Positions 29,321-40,432 of a DNA stretch of 64,000 bases are shown piece after piece. The notes under the pieces were generated by a model. That model did no database searches. It was not told where the DNA came from and was given only the letters and a program-made list of their open reading frames with translations. The DNA comes from Candidatus Campbellbacteria bacterium (lineage in GTDB: Bacteria > Patescibacteriota > Minisyncoccia > Phycocordibacterales > EsbW-18): positions 184,978 through 248,977 of the forward strand of contig BTUR01000001.1 in the NCBI GenBank assembly GCA_045863475.1, written 5' to 3'. Positions within the stretch are counted from its first letter, which is position 1, and each line of letters begins with the position of its first letter. A program made the translations under genes and the position numbers.

Positions 29321-29391
29321 GCGGGATTAGTTTAGTGGCAAAATGACTGCCTTCCAAGCAGTAGACGCCGGTCCGATTCCGGCATCCCGCA
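29321..29391 (+). tRNA. tRNA-Gly (anticodon UCC)
   Basis: Acceptor GCGGGAT/ATCCCGC, anticodon stem-loop ACTGC-CTTCCAA-GCAGT, T-arm GCCGG-TCCGATT-CCGGC; CCA is not encoded. Confidence 0.75.
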
Positions 29392-29822: not shown

Positions 29823-30251
29823 CTAACTAAACCACTGACGAAATCCTCGTGCACGAGGCAGTAAAAGAAGCAGTGCAAGCGGCGCGCCCCAGTTTGCCCA
29901 TCGTTCGACGAAGTCCCAGATTGACTCACCCATAATAGGACGCACGAGCGCGGTCCATAATCCCCAAAACGCCATCCAGAGTAGTGCGATGCGAATTGGT
30001 TTCACCAAAATAATGAGTGCAAGAATAATATCCATCAAACCAATGAGCGTCAGGAGCGTCATCGCCGTCCCCTGCTCCACCTTCATCAACTCCTGAATCC
30101 AAATAACCCACTGTTCCTTTCCGTTGTACGCAAGTATGCCGTGTCCGAAGAACTCTCCGGCGACCGCAATGCGCAACACCCATTCCATTGCTTTTGTATT
30201 CATACAAAAATAAATTAAAAAATGACTGATACCCTCAGTGTACGGCATCAA
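29823..30251 (-). CDS. hypothetical membrane protein
   Basis: 142 aa with 4 predicted TM helices. Confidence 0.4.
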   Translation of the reverse strand: MMPYTEGISHFLIYFCMNTKAMEWVLRIAVAGEFFGHGILAYNGKEQWVIWIQELMKVEQGTAMTLLTLIGLMDIILALIILVKPIRIALLWMAFWGLWTALVRPIMGESIWDFVERWANWGAPLALLLLLPRARGFRQWFS

Positions 30252-30291
30252 TCATTTTTTACGAGAGACCATGTGTATTGTCTCAACCTAG

Positions 30292-30362
30292 TCGGGGCGC
30301 CGAGAATCGGACTCGGTCTACTTGGTCCCAAACCAAGCGTACTACCGGTATACTACGCCCCG
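30292..30362 (-). tRNA. tRNA-Pro (anticodon UGG)
   Basis: Reverse complement gives CGGGGCG-TAGTATACCGGTAGTAC-GCTTGG-TTTGGGA-CCAAGT...CCGAG-TCCGATT-CTCGG-CGCCCCG-A; CCA is not encoded. Confidence 0.7.
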
Positions 30363-30742
30363 CTTTTGCCCTCCAACCCTCTTCTTATCTCATCGTGAAT
30401 AATCCTGTGGCAGTTAGCACACACAACTATACACTTTTTTATCTCTTTTATAAGTTTTTCGGACCCCACCTCTCGACGAAGTCCCCCTATTGTGAATGAT
30501 TTTGTCCCCTCAATTTTGTGATGAAAATCAAGCACTCTCGAATCGGCGTTGCCACAACGGTAGCATCCCCGGCTTTGTTTATATTCAGAGATCCACCGAT
30601 AATGCTTTTCTATAAGTGATTGTTTCGTCGCGCGATAACAATCGCGACACTTTCTCCGCCTAAATACCTTGCGTGGTGTTGTTAGTGCAACGCCAAAATA
30701 GTCGTCCGGGAATGTTTTGCCACAGTATTTGCATTTTTTCAT
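30353..30742 (-). CDS. HNH endonuclease, small standalone
   Basis: CxxC...CxxC, the LDFHHKI and CANCHRIIH motifs; its last 10 nt overlap the tRNA-Pro(UGG) 5' end. Confidence 0.7.
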   Translation of the reverse strand: MKKCKYCGKTFPDDYFGVALTTPRKVFRRRKCRDCYRATKQSLIEKHYRWISEYKQSRGCYRCGNADSRVLDFHHKIEGTKSFTIGGLRREVGSEKLIKEIKKCIVVCANCHRIIHDEIRRGLEGKSGA

Positions 30743-30802
30743 GCCCCAATTCTAGGGCGTGGATATAAATTTGGGATAAAATCACACATCCCAAAGAACA
30801 GG

Positions 30803-30873
30803 TCGGGCTGCCGGGAATTGAACCCGGTCTACATCCACCCCATGGATGCGTACTACCGGTATACTACAGCCCG
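30803..30873 (-). tRNA. tRNA-Pro (anticodon GGG)
   Basis: Reverse complement gives CGGGCTG-TAGTATACCGGTAGTAC-GCATCC-ATGGGGT-GGATGT-AGA-CCGGG-TTCAATT-CCCGG-CAGCCCG-A. Confidence 0.65.
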
Positions 30874-30981
30874 AGTGAGGAAAATCAGGTTTTATGTTCA
30901 CATGAAAACTGATTTTCCGAGCGAGGGACGTATCGAGATGCGCAGCAGCGAAGATACGCCCGACGAACTAATCTAGCATTT

Positions 30982-31740
30982 TTACATTTTTTTCTCCACC
31001 GAACTTTTCTTTAAACTCTTCCACACAATCTCAAAAATCTCGCGCATCGTCTTTGTAATCGCCGGGTTCTCAATCACTAATCCTTGTAAATTAAGCGGAT
31101 CAAAAAATCGCACAAACGTCGGACCAATCTCTACGGCAATGTCCGACGAGTATTCTCCTGCAGGTGCTTCAACAAATTCGCGTCCATACTCGATATCTTT
31201 TGCCCGAAATTCTTTCAAAGAAGGATCTTTCGGAGCGATACCTTGCATTCGCACCCCTCTGTTTTTCAACTCTTCGTTGTATTCCTCATATCCGCCGAAT
31301 ATTTTCATAACCTCAGGCGATGTTTTGGCATAGAAACCTTTTACAATTCCTCCCTCAAGAGAATCCAGACCGTACCGCAAAACTTCTTTCGCACCCTCAG
31401 CACCGTCAAAAAACAGCACTTGCGGTTTTTCGGTACCAACTTTCTCCAACGCCTTGATTTCCGGAAGCGCCCGCTCAACCTGTTCCAACCTTTCACGCGC
31501 CTTTTCAATCAGGTTTTCCGGCGATATCGCACGATAGAGCCTCTTTTTTGTACGTGGAACCAAAACCGCCGCTCCTTTGCGTACAAGCTCGTTAAGAATC
31601 ACATATGCCGTCGGACGTTTAAGCCCGCTGACAACCGCCACGGAGTACGCAGATGTCGTCCCGCGCTTCAAAAGAGCAAGGTATACCGCCGCCTCTTTCT
31701 CGGAAAACCCCAAGCGTTGTATAAGCTCCTGAAATTCCAT
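30982..31740 (-). CDS. TrmB-family winged-helix transcriptional regulator
   Basis: N-terminus LGFSEKEAAVYLALLKRGTTSAYSVAVVSGLKRPTAYVILNELVRKG is TrmB-like HTH, followed by a C-terminal effector-like domain. Confidence 0.55.
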   Translation of the reverse strand: MEFQELIQRLGFSEKEAAVYLALLKRGTTSAYSVAVVSGLKRPTAYVILNELVRKGAAVLVPRTKKRLYRAISPENLIEKARERLEQVERALPEIKALEKVGTEKPQVLFFDGAEGAKEVLRYGLDSLEGGIVKGFYAKTSPEVMKIFGGYEEYNEELKNRGVRMQGIAPKDPSLKEFRAKDIEYGREFVEAPAGEYSSDIAVEIGPTFVRFFDPLNLQGLVIENPAITKTMREIFEIVWKSLKKSSVEKKM

Positions 31741-31949
31741 ACATGGGCAGTATATACGCAACAGAAATAATAGTCAATATTTTTGACAACCTAAAGTGAT
31801 GGACGCATTAAAACCTTATTCTCAGGCGTTTTTTGACGTTTCACTGCACTATTTTTAGTCATAGTATTTGACATTTTATTCAAACCCATGTACACTGTGT
31901 CCAGATGATGAGCAATAAAGCTCATCGAGATCTTTGAGGAGACACTCTC

Positions 31950-32432
31950 ATGTATATCGAGGTCATCGGTGACACTCGGAACGGCGGAGATGTTTGGGCT
32001 GAAGTGGTAATCGGCGAGTGGAGCGGCAAGCCCCACCTCGATTCCGAACAAGCCACCATCTTCTACACCCCACTCTCAGAGCCGGTCCGGCAGGTTCTCG
32101 ATTCGCTTGGTCACAAGCACATCGAGGCCTTCGAGCATCTCTTCCTGCAACTCTTCCGCGCAGGCATGGATGCCGAGCATGATTGTCCTGAGATTATTCA
32201 AAATATTCGGGACATCTGGGAGCTCGACGCCGAGCAAGAGCGAGAGAGGCTCTGGCAAGAGGAGCACCGGGCCGGAATTGAGTACTGGGGCTCTAGGGGA
32301 CCAAACACCATCGAAAAGGACGAGCTGCTCGGAAAACAAATCTGGCAGGGACTCTCGATTGATGGTGGTGGTAACGAGGAGACGGCCCAGGAGTCCGCGG
32401 AGGACTCAGAAACAGAACCTCCGAAGCCGTGA
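31950..32432 (+). CDS. hypothetical acidic protein
   Basis: 160-aa ORF with high GC. Confidence 0.35.
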   Translation: MYIEVIGDTRNGGDVWAEVVIGEWSGKPHLDSEQATIFYTPLSEPVRQVLDSLGHKHIEAFEHLFLQLFRAGMDAEHDCPEIIQNIRDIWELDAEQERERLWQEEHRAGIEYWGSRGPNTIEKDELLGKQIWQGLSIDGGGNEETAQESAEDSETEPPKP

Positions 32433-32487
32433 GGCCGAAGACTCACGCACAGCCAACGGGAAACCGGGGCTGTTTTTTTATAAGTTT

Positions 32488-32892
32488 CTAAAGGACATTC
32501 TCAATGACACCTATTCTGGCAGTTTTGTCCTTTAGATTTAACTTTACCGTAACCACGTCCAGTTGGAATTTTGTTTCACGTGGAACATCCTTATCTACCA
32601 GGTAGGTTTGAATTACCCGTGAAAGCCGCTTGAGCTTTTCACGTGTAACATGTTCCTCTGGTCTTATTTGATTTGTTTCACGTGAAACATTACTTGTTTC
32701 TGTTTCCCATGAAACACACTTTACCTCAACAAAGTGAACTACGGATTCTTTGCAAGCAACAACATCCAACTCACCCCATTTTCTAAGATAATTTCTTTCA
32801 ATTATTGAAAAACCCTGTTTCATGAGAAACCGGACAGCCAGATCTTCCCCGATTCTTCCTATTTTTGATGTTTTTGTACCTAATTGTTTCAC
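32488..32892 (-). CDS. YraN/UPF0102-family predicted endonuclease, with a repeat-derived insertion
   Basis: GEDLAVRFLMKQGFSIIERNYLRKWGELDVVACKESVVHFVEVK is the YraN core. The ORF also contains multiple GTTTCACGTGAAAC-type palindromes that encode a low-complexity insert. Confidence 0.55.
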   Translation of the reverse strand: MKQLGTKTSKIGRIGEDLAVRFLMKQGFSIIERNYLRKWGELDVVACKESVVHFVEVKCVSWETETSNVSRETNQIRPEEHVTREKLKRLSRVIQTYLVDKDVPRETKFQLDVVTVKLNLKDKTARIGVIENVL

Positions 32893-33265
32893 GTGAAACT
32901 ATATTTTATAAAAAGCCTTATTTTATAACGTTTTTCATAAACTAAAGGACTTCAAGGACTGGTGTCTTTTACACATATCCCCGTTGTTATCCCCATTTTA
33001 GTGTTGAAAAATAAAGTTTTCTTAAAGACTTTCCTTGCTGTCTTTTTCATCTGATGTTCAAAATTGATTTCTTAGAGGCCTTGCCACTAAGTGCTTAGTG
33101 GCGAGACCTCTTGGGTACAACTTGGAAAAAAGTGTATATACGCTATACTCCAAAGCGTGCTGAAAGCACACTTGCGGGCATATGCGGTAGGTAGCATATG
33201 TCGCTGCGTTTGGAAAAGATGGGACTGAAGATCTCCAATCTTCATTCCGCCTTATTCCTCATTTG

Positions 33266-33336
33266 CGGGCATGGTTTAGTGGTAGAACACGTCCTTGCCA
33301 AGGACGAGACGGGAGTCCGATTCTCCCTGCCCGCAC
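33266..33336 (+). tRNA. tRNA-Gly (anticodon GCC)
   Basis: GCGGGCA...CGTCC-TTGCCAA-GGACG...GGGAG-TCCGATT-CTCCC-TGCCCGC-A, followed by CCA at 33337-33339. Confidence 0.8.
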
Positions 33337-33361
33337 CAAGTTGGTTACCCAAAATACTACC

Positions 33362-33386
33362 GTAGTGTGCTCCCGGAGGGATTCGG
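33362..33386. repeat. duplicated tRNA-Arg 3'-end fragment (direct repeat of 33481-33500)
   Basis: TGTGCTCCCGGAGGGATTCG occurs at both sites; the intervening 95 nt contains further T-arm-like debris (GGCTTTCGAATCCCTCC). Confidence 0.5.
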
Positions 33387-33482
33387 TCACAGATACTTTT
33401 CTGCTGAAAAGTCCTTCGACCCCGCCTCGCACCGTCGTGCTCCGGCTTTCGAATCCCTCCGAAAACATCGTATTACAATTTG

Positions 33483-33554
33483 TGCTCCCGGAGGGATTCG
33501 AACCCCCAACAACAGGTTCGAAGCCTGTCGTGATATCCATTTCACCACGGGAGC
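33483..33554 (-). tRNA. tRNA-Arg (anticodon UCG)
   Basis: Reverse complement gives GCTCCCG-TG-GTGAAATGGATATCAC-GACAGG-CTTCGAA-CCTGT-TGTTG-GGGGG-TTCGAAT-CCCTC-CGGGAGC-A. Confidence 0.7.
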
Positions 33555-33620
33555 AGATACGGTCGTATCATAATCTGATTCTTCGCTTTTTGCTACGGAT
33601 TTTCAATATACAATCAATGT

Positions 33621-35084
33621 ATGAAACCCATCCCTAAAGAAGTTCGCGGCGTTGTCGCACTGCTTCAGCACGGAGGCTACGAGGCATACCTTGTCGGCGG
33701 ATGTGTTCGGGACATCTACCTCAACCGAACACCCAAAGACTGGGACGTGACGACAAACGCAACGCCGGAGCAAATCCAGGCGGTTTTTCCGCACACGTTC
33801 TATGAAAATGATTTTGGAACCGTTGGTGTGGTCAACGACGACACGGAAGACCCGACACTAAAAAATATTGAGGTAACACCGTACCGAAAAGAAGGGAAGT
33901 ACACCGACAAACGCCGCCCTGACGAGGTTGTCTTCGGCGCAACGCTTGCAGAAGACCTCGCGCGTCGCGACTTCACCGTCAACGCACTTGCGTACGACCC
34001 CGCAACGGAGACACTGGTTGACCTCTACGACGGGGAAGAGGATCTCGCAAAGGGAGTTATTCGCGCGGTGGGCAATCCTGATGAACGTTTTGAGGAAGAT
34101 GCACTGCGATTGCTGCGTGCCGTGCGCCTTGCAACCGAACTTTCCTTCGAGATCGAAGAAAAAACGGCAACCGCCATCAAGCAACGCGCAAAAAACCTCG
34201 GTGAGATTTCCGGCGAGCGCATTCGCGAAGAACTCAGCAAAATTCTTATGTCTGACGCGCCGTTCCGTGGCCTGGAAATTCTCCATGAACACGGACTGCT
34301 CCGTTTTGTCGTTCCCGAACTCTCCGAAGGAGTCGGCGTGGGTCAGAATCAGGCCCATTCTTTCACGGTTTTTGAGCACATCGGTCGCACCGTGCAGGCG
34401 GCGGCGGATAAAAAGTTTCCGCTTGAAGTCCGGCTCGCGTGTCTCTTCCATGACATTGCAAAACCGCACACAAAAGCGATGGATACGAAGAAAAACGACT
34501 GGTCATTCCACGGGCACGAGGTTGTCGGAAGCCGTATCGCACGAAAACGCCTCCAGGAACTCCGATTTTCCAACGATGTCATTGATACGGTGATAAAACT
34601 TGTGCGTTGGCACATGTTTTTCTCCGACACTGAGCAAATCACGCACTCCGCGGTGCGCCGGCTCATACGAAACGTCGGACGGGAGAACGTGGAAAACATT
34701 TTAAACGTCCGCATCTGCGATCGCATCGGCACCGGACGTCCGAAAGAGCAGCCGTACCGGCTCCGCAAGTACAAAGCAATGATTGATGAGGTGATGCGCG
34801 ACCCGGTGTCCGTCTCGATGCTTGCAATTGACGGCCGCGGACTCATGCAACTGCTTGATGAGAAACCCGGACCGCGCGTGGGGTGGATTTTGCACGCACT
34901 CTTAGAAGATGTGCTTGATGATCCGACACGCAACGAGCTCTCCTATTTGGAAAAACGCGCGTTTGAACTCGCCGGTATGCCTGAAAAAGAACTGCGCGCA
35001 CTCGGTGAAAAGGGAAAGGACGCACGTGAAGAAGCGGAGGAAAAGGAAGTCAAAAAGATCCGCTCAAAGCACCACGTGCAGTAG
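33621..35084 (+). CDS. cca: CCA-adding enzyme / poly(A) polymerase-family tRNA nucleotidyltransferase with an HD domain
   Basis: GGCVRD...DWD nucleotidyltransferase head, the RDFTVNAL motif, and HD-domain motifs HSFTVFEH and LFHDIAKP. Confidence 0.85.
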   Translation: MKPIPKEVRGVVALLQHGGYEAYLVGGCVRDIYLNRTPKDWDVTTNATPEQIQAVFPHTFYENDFGTVGVVNDDTEDPTLKNIEVTPYRKEGKYTDKRRPDEVVFGATLAEDLARRDFTVNALAYDPATETLVDLYDGEEDLAKGVIRAVGNPDERFEEDALRLLRAVRLATELSFEIEEKTATAIKQRAKNLGEISGERIREELSKILMSDAPFRGLEILHEHGLLRFVVPELSEGVGVGQNQAHSFTVFEHIGRTVQAAADKKFPLEVRLACLFHDIAKPHTKAMDTKKNDWSFHGHEVVGSRIARKRLQELRFSNDVIDTVIKLVRWHMFFSDTEQITHSAVRRLIRNVGRENVENILNVRICDRIGTGRPKEQPYRLRKYKAMIDEVMRDPVSVSMLAIDGRGLMQLLDEKPGPRVGWILHALLEDVLDDPTRNELSYLEKRAFELAGMPEKELRALGEKGKDAREEAEEKEVKKIRSKHHVQ

Positions 35085-36649: not shown

Positions 36650-36831
36650 CTCTCCGCTTGCATTTTATTTCGGGAACACGCGTAATTGTCTGCTGACAAT
36701 TCACTCGCACTCGCCCTCATCGGGCTCCGTGAGTTTCCCGAAATAAAAAGCTCGCTACGTACGAAACCCCGGCCGTAAGGCCGGGGTTTCACGTTCTAAT
36801 TTTCTGCAAGTACCGCGTAAAGTGGGGGCCC

Positions 36832-36859
36832 TTGACAAACAATTTTAGCTTGCTATAAT
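36832..36859 (+). promoter_or_regulatory. near-consensus sigma70 promoter
   Basis: TTGACA at 36832-36837, a 16-nt spacer, TATAAT at 36854-36859; the predicted +1 is about 36865-36866. Confidence 0.6.
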
Positions 36860-36864
36860 GCCCT

Positions 36865-37021
36865 CGTCACATAGCTCAACGTAAGGTAGAGCGGCGGTCA
36901 AAAAACCGCGTCAGACCGAAGGGGAAAAGAGGCAGTGCTGGCGAGCACAGAAGCCCTCAGAACCTAGGTCGCAGAGATACGCATCTCTGTTGTGTGGGTC
37001 GAATCCCACTGTGGCACCCGA
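36865..37021 (+). ncRNA. tRNA-like structured RNA with a roughly 100-nt insertion in the variable-loop position, an initiator-like C1·A72 mismatch and an encoded CCA; identity unresolved
   Basis: 7-bp acceptor (CGTCACA/TGTGGCA), U8-A9, D-arm GCTC-AACGTAAGGTA-GAGC, anticodon-like stem GCGG(T)-loop TCAAAAA-(A)CCGC with no standard anticodon. A roughly 95-nt multi-hairpin insert follows, then T-arm GTGGG-TCGAAT-CCCAC, then C73-CCA. A downstream hairpin and terminator lie at 37022-37100. Confidence 0.4.
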
Positions 37022-37073
37022 GCCGCTGGTACACCCGGCGGCTTCTTCATTTCACAAATTCACAAAAATAAAA

Positions 37074-37100
37074 CCCCTCACACGAGGGGTTTTATTTTTT
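37074..37100. terminator. bidirectional rho-independent terminator
   Basis: CCCCTCACACGAGGGG with an A-run on one side and a T-run on the other; serves the ncRNA on + and the Xer gene on -. Confidence 0.6.
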
Positions 37101-38000
37101 CCCGTGAAAGTTTTTATGCACGTCGCGCAGGTGTTTGTCGGTGACGTGCGTGTAAATCTGCGTCGTCGTGATGTTCGCGTGACCTAAGAGCGCCTGCACC
37201 GAACGCAGATCCGCGCCGTTTTCCAGCAAGTCGGTGGCAAACGAGTGACGCACGACGTGCGGTGTTACTTTTTTTGAAATACCCGCTTTCACGGCGTACC
37301 GTTTCACGAGGCGTTCGACAGAACGTGCAGATAACCGCAAATCTGAACGGCTTTTTGAGGACGGCCCCGCCTGTACAAACATCGCATCATCAAGATCGGC
37401 ACGCTTTGCAAGATAACTTTCAACCGCGGCGCGTGCGGTGGGGGAGACAAACACGACACGCACCTTATCTCCCTTGCCACGAATGGAGAATTCTCCGCGC
37501 GAAAGATCAATATCGCGCGGCAACGACACGAGTTCAGAAACGCGCATGCCGGTGGAGAACAAGAGTGCAAGAATCGCGCGGTCGCGCAGGGCAGTCAGTG
37601 AGTCGCCCTCGGGTGCACGCATGAGACGTGCAAGTTCTGAGGACGTAATGAGATCCAAATCGCGGTCACCGACTTTCGCAAGTTCAATCGCCTCCGGCTG
37701 AAGACTCTCTACGCCGCGTTTGCGCAAAAATTTCAGAAATGCGCGCAGTGCGATGAGATAGTAGTTCTGCGTTTTCTTCTTCAGCGTCTCGCCGCTTTTT
37801 CCTCCGGCATCCTGACGGTTCAGCCACAGGCGGAACTCACGCACCACCGTCTCAGTGATGTCCTTCGGTTTCGAGACTTTGGAGAAGGTGATGAAGCGGG
37901 AGAGGTACCGGTCGTAATTTTCAACCGTCTTCAGCGAGCGGCCGCGCTCGATTTCAAGATACTCGAGGAATTCGCGCTTGAGTGTTTCAACATCTTTCAT
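37092..38000 (-). CDS. xerC: tyrosine recombinase, XerC/XerD family
   Basis: N-terminal SAM-like domain (LEYLEIERGRSLKTVENYDRYL) and the catalytic region ...HVVRHSFATDLLENGADLRSVQALLGHANITTTQIYTHV with R...HxxR...Y. Confidence 0.85.
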   Translation of the reverse strand: MKDVETLKREFLEYLEIERGRSLKTVENYDRYLSRFITFSKVSKPKDITETVVREFRLWLNRQDAGGKSGETLKKKTQNYYLIALRAFLKFLRKRGVESLQPEAIELAKVGDRDLDLITSSELARLMRAPEGDSLTALRDRAILALLFSTGMRVSELVSLPRDIDLSRGEFSIRGKGDKVRVVFVSPTARAAVESYLAKRADLDDAMFVQAGPSSKSRSDLRLSARSVERLVKRYAVKAGISKKVTPHVVRHSFATDLLENGADLRSVQALLGHANITTTQIYTHVTDKHLRDVHKNFHGKK

Positions 38001-39569: not shown

Positions 39570-39708
39570 CAACACGAACATAAAAACCTCCCGCATCTCG
39601 GGAGGTTTTTTATATCAGAACAGAAGATGTTGACTAAACCAATAAAATTGTTATAATACTCTCAGATGCTAATCACTGACGTCTCTGCTTTCCCACAAGG
39701 AGAACGCG

Positions 39709-40266
39709 ATGTTGGAGTGGATCATGCAAGTCGCACAGAGTCATCCGTTCATCGTGATGCCCATCGTGCTGTTCGCCGCGGCCGTCGTAGTGCTGGTGCT
39801 CATCGCCTTCGGCTACGACCTCACCCGTCCCTACCGGGATCGGAAGAAGGGGGAGAGTATCCCCTACAAGAAGGCGGTCGTCGCACTCTTCGCCCTCAGC
39901 ATCCTCTCGGGGTGTGCCAAAGAGATGACCGCGGAAGAGCGCGCGTTCGTCGCATCCATGGAAGACCGCATCGTGGCCGCTCAACCAGACACGATGATTC
40001 TGACCTGGAACAACAACCTCGGACGAATCGTTCGGGTGGAAGTTCTCGGGGAGAAAGATGAGCGGTCAAGGATGCAAGTGCACGTCGAGTGGCCGGATGG
40101 CACCCACACGTGGTACGCCCCTCGTGCTCTCGCCCGAACCACCAAGCGAATCGCTGACGGTAGCAGCAGCACGGAGATGACGGGCGTCCTCTTGGAGTGG
40201 TGGTTGCAGAGCTCGCTCCAACGAGATACCCCGCAGCCGCCGGCTCGATCCGGCCCGACACCGTAA
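39709..40266 (+). CDS. hypothetical membrane-anchored protein
   Basis: 185-aa ORF with two N-terminal TM helices; high GC. Confidence 0.4.
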   Translation: MLEWIMQVAQSHPFIVMPIVLFAAAVVVLVLIAFGYDLTRPYRDRKKGESIPYKKAVVALFALSILSGCAKEMTAEERAFVASMEDRIVAAQPDTMILTWNNNLGRIVRVEVLGEKDERSRMQVHVEWPDGTHTWYAPRALARTTKRIADGSSSTEMTGVLLEWWLQSSLQRDTPQPPARSGPTP

Positions 40267-40432
40267 CCCAGCCCCGCCCGTCTTGGCACAAAGCCAGACG
40301 AGGCGGGGCTTCTTCATTTCTCGGGTGCGCGGTGCTACAGTACAAGCGTTACTAGTAGCGTCTTTAGCCCTCAGATGGCTAGGTTTGAAGTCTCTTCAAA
40401 TCTAAGATCTGGGGACTAGGCATCAGTCCCAC

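Follow-up and report, generated by a model that had tools for sequence, protein, structure and literature searches.

What kind of RNA, if any, is made from a locus that folds like a tRNA and lacks an anticodon that can be read? The question is raised by positions 36832–37100 of contig BTUR01000001.1 (assembly GCA_045863475.1), from a metagenome-assembled genome (MAG) of Candidatus Campbellbacteria; all coordinates given here are positions in the 64,000-nucleotide (nt) stretch of this contig that was analyzed, hereafter the window. The locus is a self-contained, compact unit that runs from a promoter through to a terminator. It lies in a private module of ≈260–270 base pairs (bp), roughly 36795–37060, placed between two terminators in the intergenic region that separates the gene for a DUF378 protein from xer, the gene for an Xer-type recombinase. 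Within the module a consensus promoter precedes the 153-nt cloverleaf RNA, which is expanded by 84 nt, and a trailer hairpin follows; there are no other genes, and inspection of the open reading frames (ORFs) in the RNA region yielded no convincing small one. We give an even chance to the reading that this is a young, lineage-private, tRNA-derived gene with an expressed, tRNA-scaffolded, non-decoding RNA as its product. We regard it as firm that the RNA, to judge from its sequence, derives from a tRNA, that it cannot decode, that it occupies its own transcription unit and that the gene is a recent gain in one lineage. As the gene is limited to one species-level lineage, its function is unproven.

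The putative sigma-70 promoter matches the consensus at 12 of 12 positions and ends 5–6 nt upstream of the 153-nt RNA (Table 1). When both strands of the 64 kb were scanned for the consensus, it was the sole 12/12 site, only two sites matched at 11 of 12 positions, and by our own arithmetic ≈0.02 sites of the 12/12 kind would be expected by chance. The 16-bp spacer and the GC-rich discriminator are reminiscent of stable-RNA promoters such as E. coli rrnB P1. From the GCCCTC that follows the −10 hexamer and the position of the first cloverleaf base at 36865, the start is predicted at 36865–36867 with no leader, G36866 being as likely as 36865; transcription would be strong, beginning at ≈36866 with essentially no 5′ leader. 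Terminators flank the RNA unit on both sides, which makes it a separate transcription unit. The upstream hairpin insulates it from the DUF378 gene, and the bidirectional terminator downstream, common to the RNA and the convergent xer gene, is also found in relatives that have no such RNA. Between the RNA and this terminator lies the trailer hairpin, possibly a weak terminator or a processing signal. A preliminary description of the locus had proposed a stand-alone unit with a near-consensus sigma-70 promoter, a downstream hairpin and a bidirectional terminator, and all of these were recovered in our analysis.

The RNA itself was folded with RNAfold, and tRNA numbering was counted from C36865 as position 1. 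For 36865–37020 a cloverleaf was the dominant structure, with a predicted energy of −61.6 kcal/mol (z = −4.2), and 0 of 200 shuffled sequences were as stable. The minimum free energy (MFE) structure, which is also the centroid, made up 23% of the ensemble, and the cloverleaf was retained when the full 237-nt transcript was folded (z = −6.9). The acceptor, D, anticodon-position and T helices are present in the standard tRNA order, and 45 of 45 base pairs over six helices are intact, 25 of them in the inserted hairpins. The acceptor stem is formed by pairs G2–A7/U66–C71 (RNA positions 2–7 and 146–151), the third of its pairs being U3/G70, and A72 is RNA position 152. U8 and A9 (RNA positions 8–9) form the junction to the D arm, whose 11-nt loop includes GGUA and has A14, A15, GG and A21 at their standard places; the junction G at tRNA position 26 is RNA position 29. 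On reading the sequence, several positions of tRNA tertiary pairs are filled as well (U8/A14, A15/U48, A9 with U12–A23, and the D-loop GG). The tRNA-like fold of the preliminary description, with U8–A9, a D arm and a 6-nt T loop, is the one that we obtained.

The departures from a tRNA lie in the loops. The anticodon-position loop is CAAAAA, 6 nt long, without U33 and without a readable anticodon, where a canonical loop has 7 nt, U33 and a purine at position 37. The GC-rich stem lacking a usable anticodon had been described before. The T loop, UCGAAU, is likewise 6 nt, one base under the canonical 7, and is not of the 7-nt UUCRANY type. The ribosome would be unable to read such an RNA. As an observation on the ordinary tRNAs of the window, three of the five have the T loop UCCGAUU: Gly-UCC (29321–29391), Pro-UGG (30292–30362) and Gly-GCC (33265–33335). 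The C at position 55 of this loop occurs in 4 of 29 tRNA-Gly(GCC) genes from the fetched Patescibacteria loci, the window and two identical assemblies counted; U55 (pseudouridine 55) is near-universal in T loops.

The D- and T-arm sequences are textbook, and ARAGORN at its default settings calls a tRNA once one of the inserted hairpins is removed, so the core comes from a tRNA and did not arise as a chance fold. Its nearest relatives among 330 tRNAs from the fetched loci are of class I (Arg, Thr, Phe), with generic similarity only. In one tRNA-Phe(GAA), taken from a metagenome locus unrelated to this one, the anticodon stem is identical and the loop is CUGAAAA, compared with CAAAAA here; this hints at an ancestor resembling tRNA-Phe. 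The search for a parental tRNA was negative, the window's tRNA-Arg(TCG), Gly and Pro genes being unrelated.

A serious rival of the favoured reading is that the locus is a dead relic: a tRNA copy that arrived with its promoter, took up an insertion in the variable region, lost one base from each of the two loops and now persists as neutral DNA without a role, transcribed or not. We regard this as possible, if somewhat doubtful. It would account for the non-canonical 6-nt anticodon and T loops, for the mismatch at the terminal pair of the acceptor stem, and for an anticodon arm like that of tRNA-Phe(GAA) once U33 is removed and A put in place of G34, as judged against a tRNA from an unrelated metagenome locus; also in its favour is that the locus is private to one lineage, missing from relatives and without a homolog in the searched sets. 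Decay would strike stems and promoter as readily as loops, and for this reason a perfect promoter and the integrity of every helix, including the 25 insert pairs, count against a relic. Nor was a parental gene found, the local Arg, Gly and Pro genes being unrelated, and Patescibacteria genomes are small and compact (PMC13011429).

The portion of the RNA without a tRNA precedent lies between the anticodon-like stem and the T stem, which are separated by 84 nt (36910–36993) made up of hairpin A, hairpin B and linkers. Extra hairpins had been noted at this place as an insertion of ≈95–100 nt; the hairpins are present and the insertion is smaller. Folded in isolation, the 84-nt insert gave z = −3.0. 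Hairpin B is at the place of the long variable arm of type II tRNAs, and ARAGORN treats it as a variable arm. Hairpin A is the part that has no counterpart in any tRNA, and it contains a 5 × 5 purine-rich internal loop (GGAAA/CAGAA); symmetric purine-rich loops frequently adopt a structured motif to which proteins or RNAs bind, and this one may do the same. The two hairpins are the likely business end of the molecule, which could offer them to a protein or an RNA for binding, with the tRNA body as scaffold, or act as a decoy.

Part of hairpin A (36917–36960, + strand) resembles P3 of the glycine riboswitch (ACCGAAGGGGAAA...CCCUCAG) at 13.7 bits and E = 2.7. The match to RF00504 spans model positions 40–72 only, and the threshold for the full P1–P2–P3 aptamer is 32 bits. 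Ahead of the matching part come GGUAGAGC and a hairpin, an order that loosely follows P1 and P2 of the aptamer. A glycine riboswitch was rejected, as the score is below threshold and a terminator and a convergent gene follow downstream; we judged the match to be due to chance.

Because the acceptor/T minihelix is intact, the RNA would probably be a substrate for tRNA 3′-end processing and CCA addition. After UGUGGC the 3′ end reads A72–C73–C–C–G, so there is no encoded CCA, at most C73 and CC, and the C73–CCA reported in the preliminary description has to be withdrawn. The same is true of its statement that no true tRNA in the window encodes CCA, as tRNA-Gly(GCC) at 33265–33338 ends with one. 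Among the five true tRNAs, tRNA-Gly(GCC) is followed by CCA (33336–33338) and tRNA-Pro(GGG) by CC, while the other three have neither. With CCA present after tRNA-Gly(GCC) and absent from the tRNA-like RNA, the contrast that had been drawn with the other tRNAs is void. The C1/A72 mismatch, presented as a hallmark of initiator tRNA, requires a transcription start no further downstream than 36865, and the other initiator traits do not accompany it. An initiator tRNA was rejected on the D stem, which has C11:G24 and not A11:U24, on the discriminator, which is C and not A, and on the absence of a CAU anticodon. The anticodon stem has two of the three initiator G–C pairs (29–41 and 30–40), 31–39 being U–A.

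Comparison with known RNA families gave no assignment. A search of the whole window against Rfam 15 at the gathering score returned nothing beyond the five ordinary tRNAs. At E ≤ 10, with 501 nt and 166 nt as queries, there was no match to tRNA (RF00005), transfer-messenger RNA (tmRNA), signal recognition particle (SRP) RNA, 6S RNA, RNase P, Y RNA or group I introns, and the output consisted of terminator look-alikes and two partial matches at chance level. ARAGORN at default settings reported neither tRNA nor tmRNA at the locus in its tRNA, intron, tmRNA and mitochondrial modes; at an 80% threshold it proposed a tRNA-Phe(AAA) with a 60-nt intron, which we judged implausible. The earlier remark that tmRNA and SRP features are not evident agrees with these negative Rfam and ARAGORN runs, and the confident Rfam match that would have refuted the preliminary description was not obtained. 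A tmRNA was rejected in addition because the RNA has U3/G70 instead of G3/U70 and no tag reading frame.

It is scarcely credible, then, that the RNA is a highly divergent tmRNA, SRP RNA, 6S RNA, bacterial Y RNA or glycine-riboswitch-like aptamer. The sole point for this is the partial match of hairpin A to glycine riboswitch P3 (13.7 bits, E = 2.7). On the other side are the lack of any match at the gathering score and of SRP, 6S, tmRNA or Y RNA at E ≤ 10, the negative tmRNA mode of ARAGORN together with U3/G70 and the missing tag frame, and the consideration that an essential housekeeping RNA, unless relocated, would not be absent from the orthologous site in all relatives.

The ARAGORN call at the lowered threshold also bears on a different explanation, namely that a true tRNA gene is split here by an intron, or another intervening sequence, whose removal gives a working tRNA. 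A group I core would not fit into an insert of 60–84 nt. In Patescibacteria, tRNA genes commonly contain group I introns that standard annotation misses; these follow a U of the anticodon loop and are detected with group I covariance models (PMC13011429). We made 1080 single-deletion constructs in silico, with deletions starting at 31–60 and ending at 94–129. Removal of hairpin A led ARAGORN at default settings to call a tRNA with a long variable arm (type II) and an unreadable anticodon of 2 bases. Constructs that mimicked an anticodon-loop intron had 7-nt loops with A at position 33 and the anticodons CCU, ACU, AAU and AAA. None of the 1080 constructs gave a canonical anticodon loop with U33, and the T loop remained at 6 nt. 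A bulge-helix-bulge motif was not seen at the base of hairpin A in our own reading of the fold. A tRNA with a group I intron was rejected: there is no RF00028 match at E ≤ 10, the insert is outside the loop, and no normal spliced tRNA results. An intervening sequence is therefore very improbable, although such introns are common in the phylum, ARAGORN offered a 60-nt one and some deletion constructs were called as tRNAs: in the published cases the intron is inserted behind a U of the anticodon loop (PMC13011429), the constructs with a 7-nt loop have A33, the T loop is still short, and neither a group I match nor a bulge-helix-bulge was found.

Two independent Logan assemblies (DRR491768 and DRR491769; loci L172 and L173) contain the 443-bp DUF378–xer spacer, together with the RNA, at 100% identity, so the locus is not an assembly artefact. 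The private module is absent from the xth–DUF378–xer interval of every relative examined, with Xer proteins 82–86% identical. Loci L001 (Xer 86%) and L002 (82%) have a short spacer that contains terminators only, as do L171 (85%; a 140-nt spacer) and L175/L176 (37 nt), whereas L170 (86%) has a different gene in this position. One check proposed earlier was for an intact tRNA at the orthologous site in relatives; none carries one, and the module is missing there. In a four-way alignment the window spacer reads, in order, as an L171-like element of the 3′ untranslated region (UTR) with its terminator (36660–36790), ≈260–270 private bases, and a terminator in common with L001.

Homologs were sought with R1, a single-sequence covariance model of the RNA with 45 pairs. 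In the window R1 matched only its own source locus; in 80 xer-syntenic loci from GTDB species it gave only weak matches at E = 0.16 (an ordinary tRNA-Arg) and E = 8.3, and in the other fetched loci only the identical copies L172 and L173 and ordinary tRNAs. An nhmmer search run beside it found nothing, and no tRNA lies downstream of xer in the 80 syntenic loci. The contigs of the closest relatives by Xer, DUF378 protein and exonuclease III either lack the module or end ahead of it. A metagenome scan with the pattern TAGCTCA-N5-11-TAGAGC-N85-115-GGTCGAATCC, which proved ill-suited, returned 87 loci, all adjacent tRNA pairs or archaeal-looking intron-bearing tRNAs, and 0 homologs. Four viral pattern scans gave one chance match and otherwise nothing, and BLAST against phage, plasmid and E. 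coli collections gave no match. In the SRR13959604 population, which is 97–98% identical at Xer and exonuclease III, contigs L169 and L177 end at the spacer edges, at the equivalents of window positions 37083 and 36637. Low coverage could explain these breaks, as could a module that is present in only part of the population.

Since the module is an insertion adjoining a tyrosine recombinase gene, it might be the footprint of a mobile element: an attachment site that resembles a tRNA, or a mini-element that the recombinase next to it inserted, at a site such as one of the dif type. We consider this improbable. Apart from the position, it is suggested by TTCACAAA, which occurs as a tandem duplicate at the right edge of the module, and by the contigs of the 97–98% related population, which break at both spacer edges. 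Against it, the recombinase is a conserved chromosomal Xer that is present in relatives without the RNA, the window has no second copy of the tRNA-like 3′ half, no convincing direct or terminal inverted repeats surround the module, and the module carries no other genes. The xer gene is 65–86% identical and syntenic in at least 80 Patescibacteria species, in fixed synteny with rpsO–pnp, and the closest Xer relatives all come from Patescibacteria/Parcubacteria MAGs. It encodes a conserved chromosomal housekeeping recombinase and not an island integrase. This conserved synteny makes its nearness to the RNA uninformative on mobility.

We return to the choice between a working, non-decoding RNA and a relic. 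A working RNA is favoured by the perfect and exactly placed promoter, by the intact state of all helices and by the compactness of the host genome; it is also favoured by the nature of the "defects", which are limited to two loops important for ribosomal use. Several points weigh against it. All copies are 100% identical, which leaves nothing for conservation or covariation analysis, and the restriction to one species fits a neutral recent insertion equally well. The two 6-nt loops and the C1/A72 mismatch are equally typical of a decaying tRNA gene. RNase P, RNase Z and the CCA-adding enzyme recognize the D/T elbow, and this elbow may be disturbed by the short T loop, which makes the processing step uncertain as well. 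The transcript is a prediction from sequence, and the homolog search is incomplete, with a single genome-collection scan, keyed on xer synteny, and a single metagenome pattern, which for the most part picked up neighbouring tRNA genes.

A bolder version of the favoured reading, which we think unlikely, is that the RNA is the first observed member of a natural "tRNA-scaffold" class of noncoding RNA in Patescibacteria, highly transcribed, matured by the tRNA machinery and CCA-tailed. Its 6-nt loops would bar it from the ribosome, and the 57-nt purine-loop hairpin would have a protein, an RNA or a small ligand as its binding partner. Such an RNA might even be aminoacylated by a synthetase that needs no anticodon and identifies its tRNA by the acceptor stem or the long variable arm; bacterial SerRS and LeuRS are synthetases of this kind.

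Table 1. Coordinates of the tRNA-like RNA, its parts and flanking features.
Feature	Position	Strand	Details or basis
Terminator hairpin upstream of the promoter	36763–36790	+	Counterpart in L171
Sigma-70 promoter, TTGACA-16 nt-TATAAT, with TG (extended −10) and GC-rich discriminator GCCCTC	36832–36859	+	12/12 consensus match
tRNA-shaped RNA, C1 to discriminator C73, 153 nt	36865–37017	+	MFE structure = centroid fold
Acceptor stem, 5′ strand CGUCACA	36865–36871	+	Fold; pairs with 37010–37016, C1/A72 unpaired
D arm, GCUC / AACGUAAGGUA / GAGC, RNA positions 10–28	36874–36892	+	Sequence, fold
Anticodon-position arm, GCGGU / CAAAAA / ACCGC, RNA positions 30–45	36894–36909	+	Sequence, fold
Linkers, RNA positions 46–49 (4 nt) and 127–129 (UGU)		+	Fold
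Hairpin A, 57 nt, RNA positions 50–106	36914–36970	+	17 pairs; alone z = −2.1
Hairpin B, 20 nt, RNA positions 107–126	36971–36990	+	8 perfect pairs, ACGC loop; alone z = −4.0
T arm, GUGGG / UCGAAU / CCCAC, RNA positions 130–145	36994–37009	+	Sequence, fold
Acceptor stem, 3′ strand UGUGGCA, then C73, C, C; next base G	37010–37019	+	Sequence
3′ trailer hairpin, 10 pairs, then CUUCAUUUCA	37020–37044	+	Fold
Bidirectional intrinsic terminator, 16-bp stem, common to the RNA and convergent xer	37064–37099	.	Fold
Xer-type recombinase	37092–38000	−	
cca	33621–35084		Neighbouring gene

The DUF378 and exonuclease III proteins encoded beside the RNA match those of a "Candidatus Campbellbacteria bacterium" MAG (AMXMBFR44) at 100% identity. 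The neighbouring genes encode the products of cca, exonuclease III, the DUF378 membrane protein, the Xer-type recombinase, S15, an NYN-domain protein and PNPase; the cca and xer genes are where they had been placed before, and cca, tRNA-Arg(TCG) and tRNA-Gly(GCC) are found near the conserved xer. Directly 3′ of the DUF378 stop codon lies a three-way-junction hairpin (36660–36751, + strand), which together with the terminator at 36763–36790 gave z = −7.0. It is 92% identical over 107 nt in L171 (Xer 85%) and was not found in L001 or L175. We take it to be a separate conserved 3′-UTR element; its few outer-stem substitutions do not look compensatory. A second near-consensus promoter, TTGACT-16-TATAAT with TG (11/12), occurs at 39630–40430 on the + strand, where it precedes ≈800 nt between the NYN-domain gene and pnp; ORFs in this region gave no Pfam match, and Rfam at the gathering score likewise gave none. 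The G+C content is 0.455–0.48 at 30001–34000, a region that includes tRNA-Pro and a TrmB regulator, and 0.51–0.57 elsewhere.

If the RNA is expressed and stable, it would be a natural tRNA body that bears a foreign structured domain in a minimal-genome bacterium. It would then join the few tRNA mimics that do not decode (tmRNA, Y RNAs and pseudo-tRNAs) and provide a handle on how tolerant these organisms' tRNA-processing enzymes are. Should it instead be a relic, it shows a tRNA-derived gene arising and starting to decay within a compact Patescibacteria genome, and it carries the caution that a cloverleaf and a perfect promoter are no proof of function. On either reading it is at present a single-lineage observation of a cleanly delimited unit with an unusual anatomy.

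Among known RNAs, the type II bacterial tRNAs share with this RNA the helix order, U8, A14, the D-loop GG and A15/U48, with hairpin B corresponding to the long variable arm. They differ in having neither 6-nt loops at the anticodon and T positions nor the 57-nt hairpin that here separates the anticodon stem from the variable arm, and U33 and an anticodon are missing here; the 4-bp D stem is usual for class I and not for type II tRNAs. Measured against a canonical tRNA, the RNA has the cloverleaf and departs in the other three of four defining features (anticodon loop, T loop and model score). The tRNA-like domain of tmRNA is alike in combining an acceptor/T-arm minihelix that lacks an anticodon with a large extra domain, whereas the RNA described here has a full D arm, U3/G70, no tag frame or pseudoknots, and a length of 153 nt compared with ≈350 nt.

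In Y RNAs the 5′ and 3′ ends form the Ro-binding stem, and the gene lies near rsr, which encodes Ro. In our RNA the ends form an acceptor stem, and no Rfam family was matched. The likeness to the bacterial Y RNA YrlA is that of a tRNA-mimicking noncoding RNA with extra protein-binding helices that meets tRNA-handling enzymes (PMC4201824). The Bacillus cereus pseudo-tRNA "tRNA-Other" is a chromosomal gene with no role in translation and nevertheless a physiological effect (PMC3399842). It resembles our locus as a non-translating, tRNA-like chromosomal gene; it has the size of an ordinary tRNA and flanks a pathogenicity island, unlike the present RNA with its 84-nt expansion, its own consensus promoter and no island, and the two would not be expected to be related in sequence. 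The tRNA genes of Patescibacteria that contain group I introns come from the same phylum, and there too an RNA insert hides the tRNA from standard tools (PMC13011429); here the 84-nt insert follows the anticodon stem and gives no group I signal. By analogy, the RNA would work most like the non-decoding tRNA mimics, namely tRNA-Other, the Y RNAs and the tRNA-like domain of tmRNA, and it lacks the features that define membership of each of these. We classify it as a tRNA-derived, tRNA-like RNA, and not as something categorically new.

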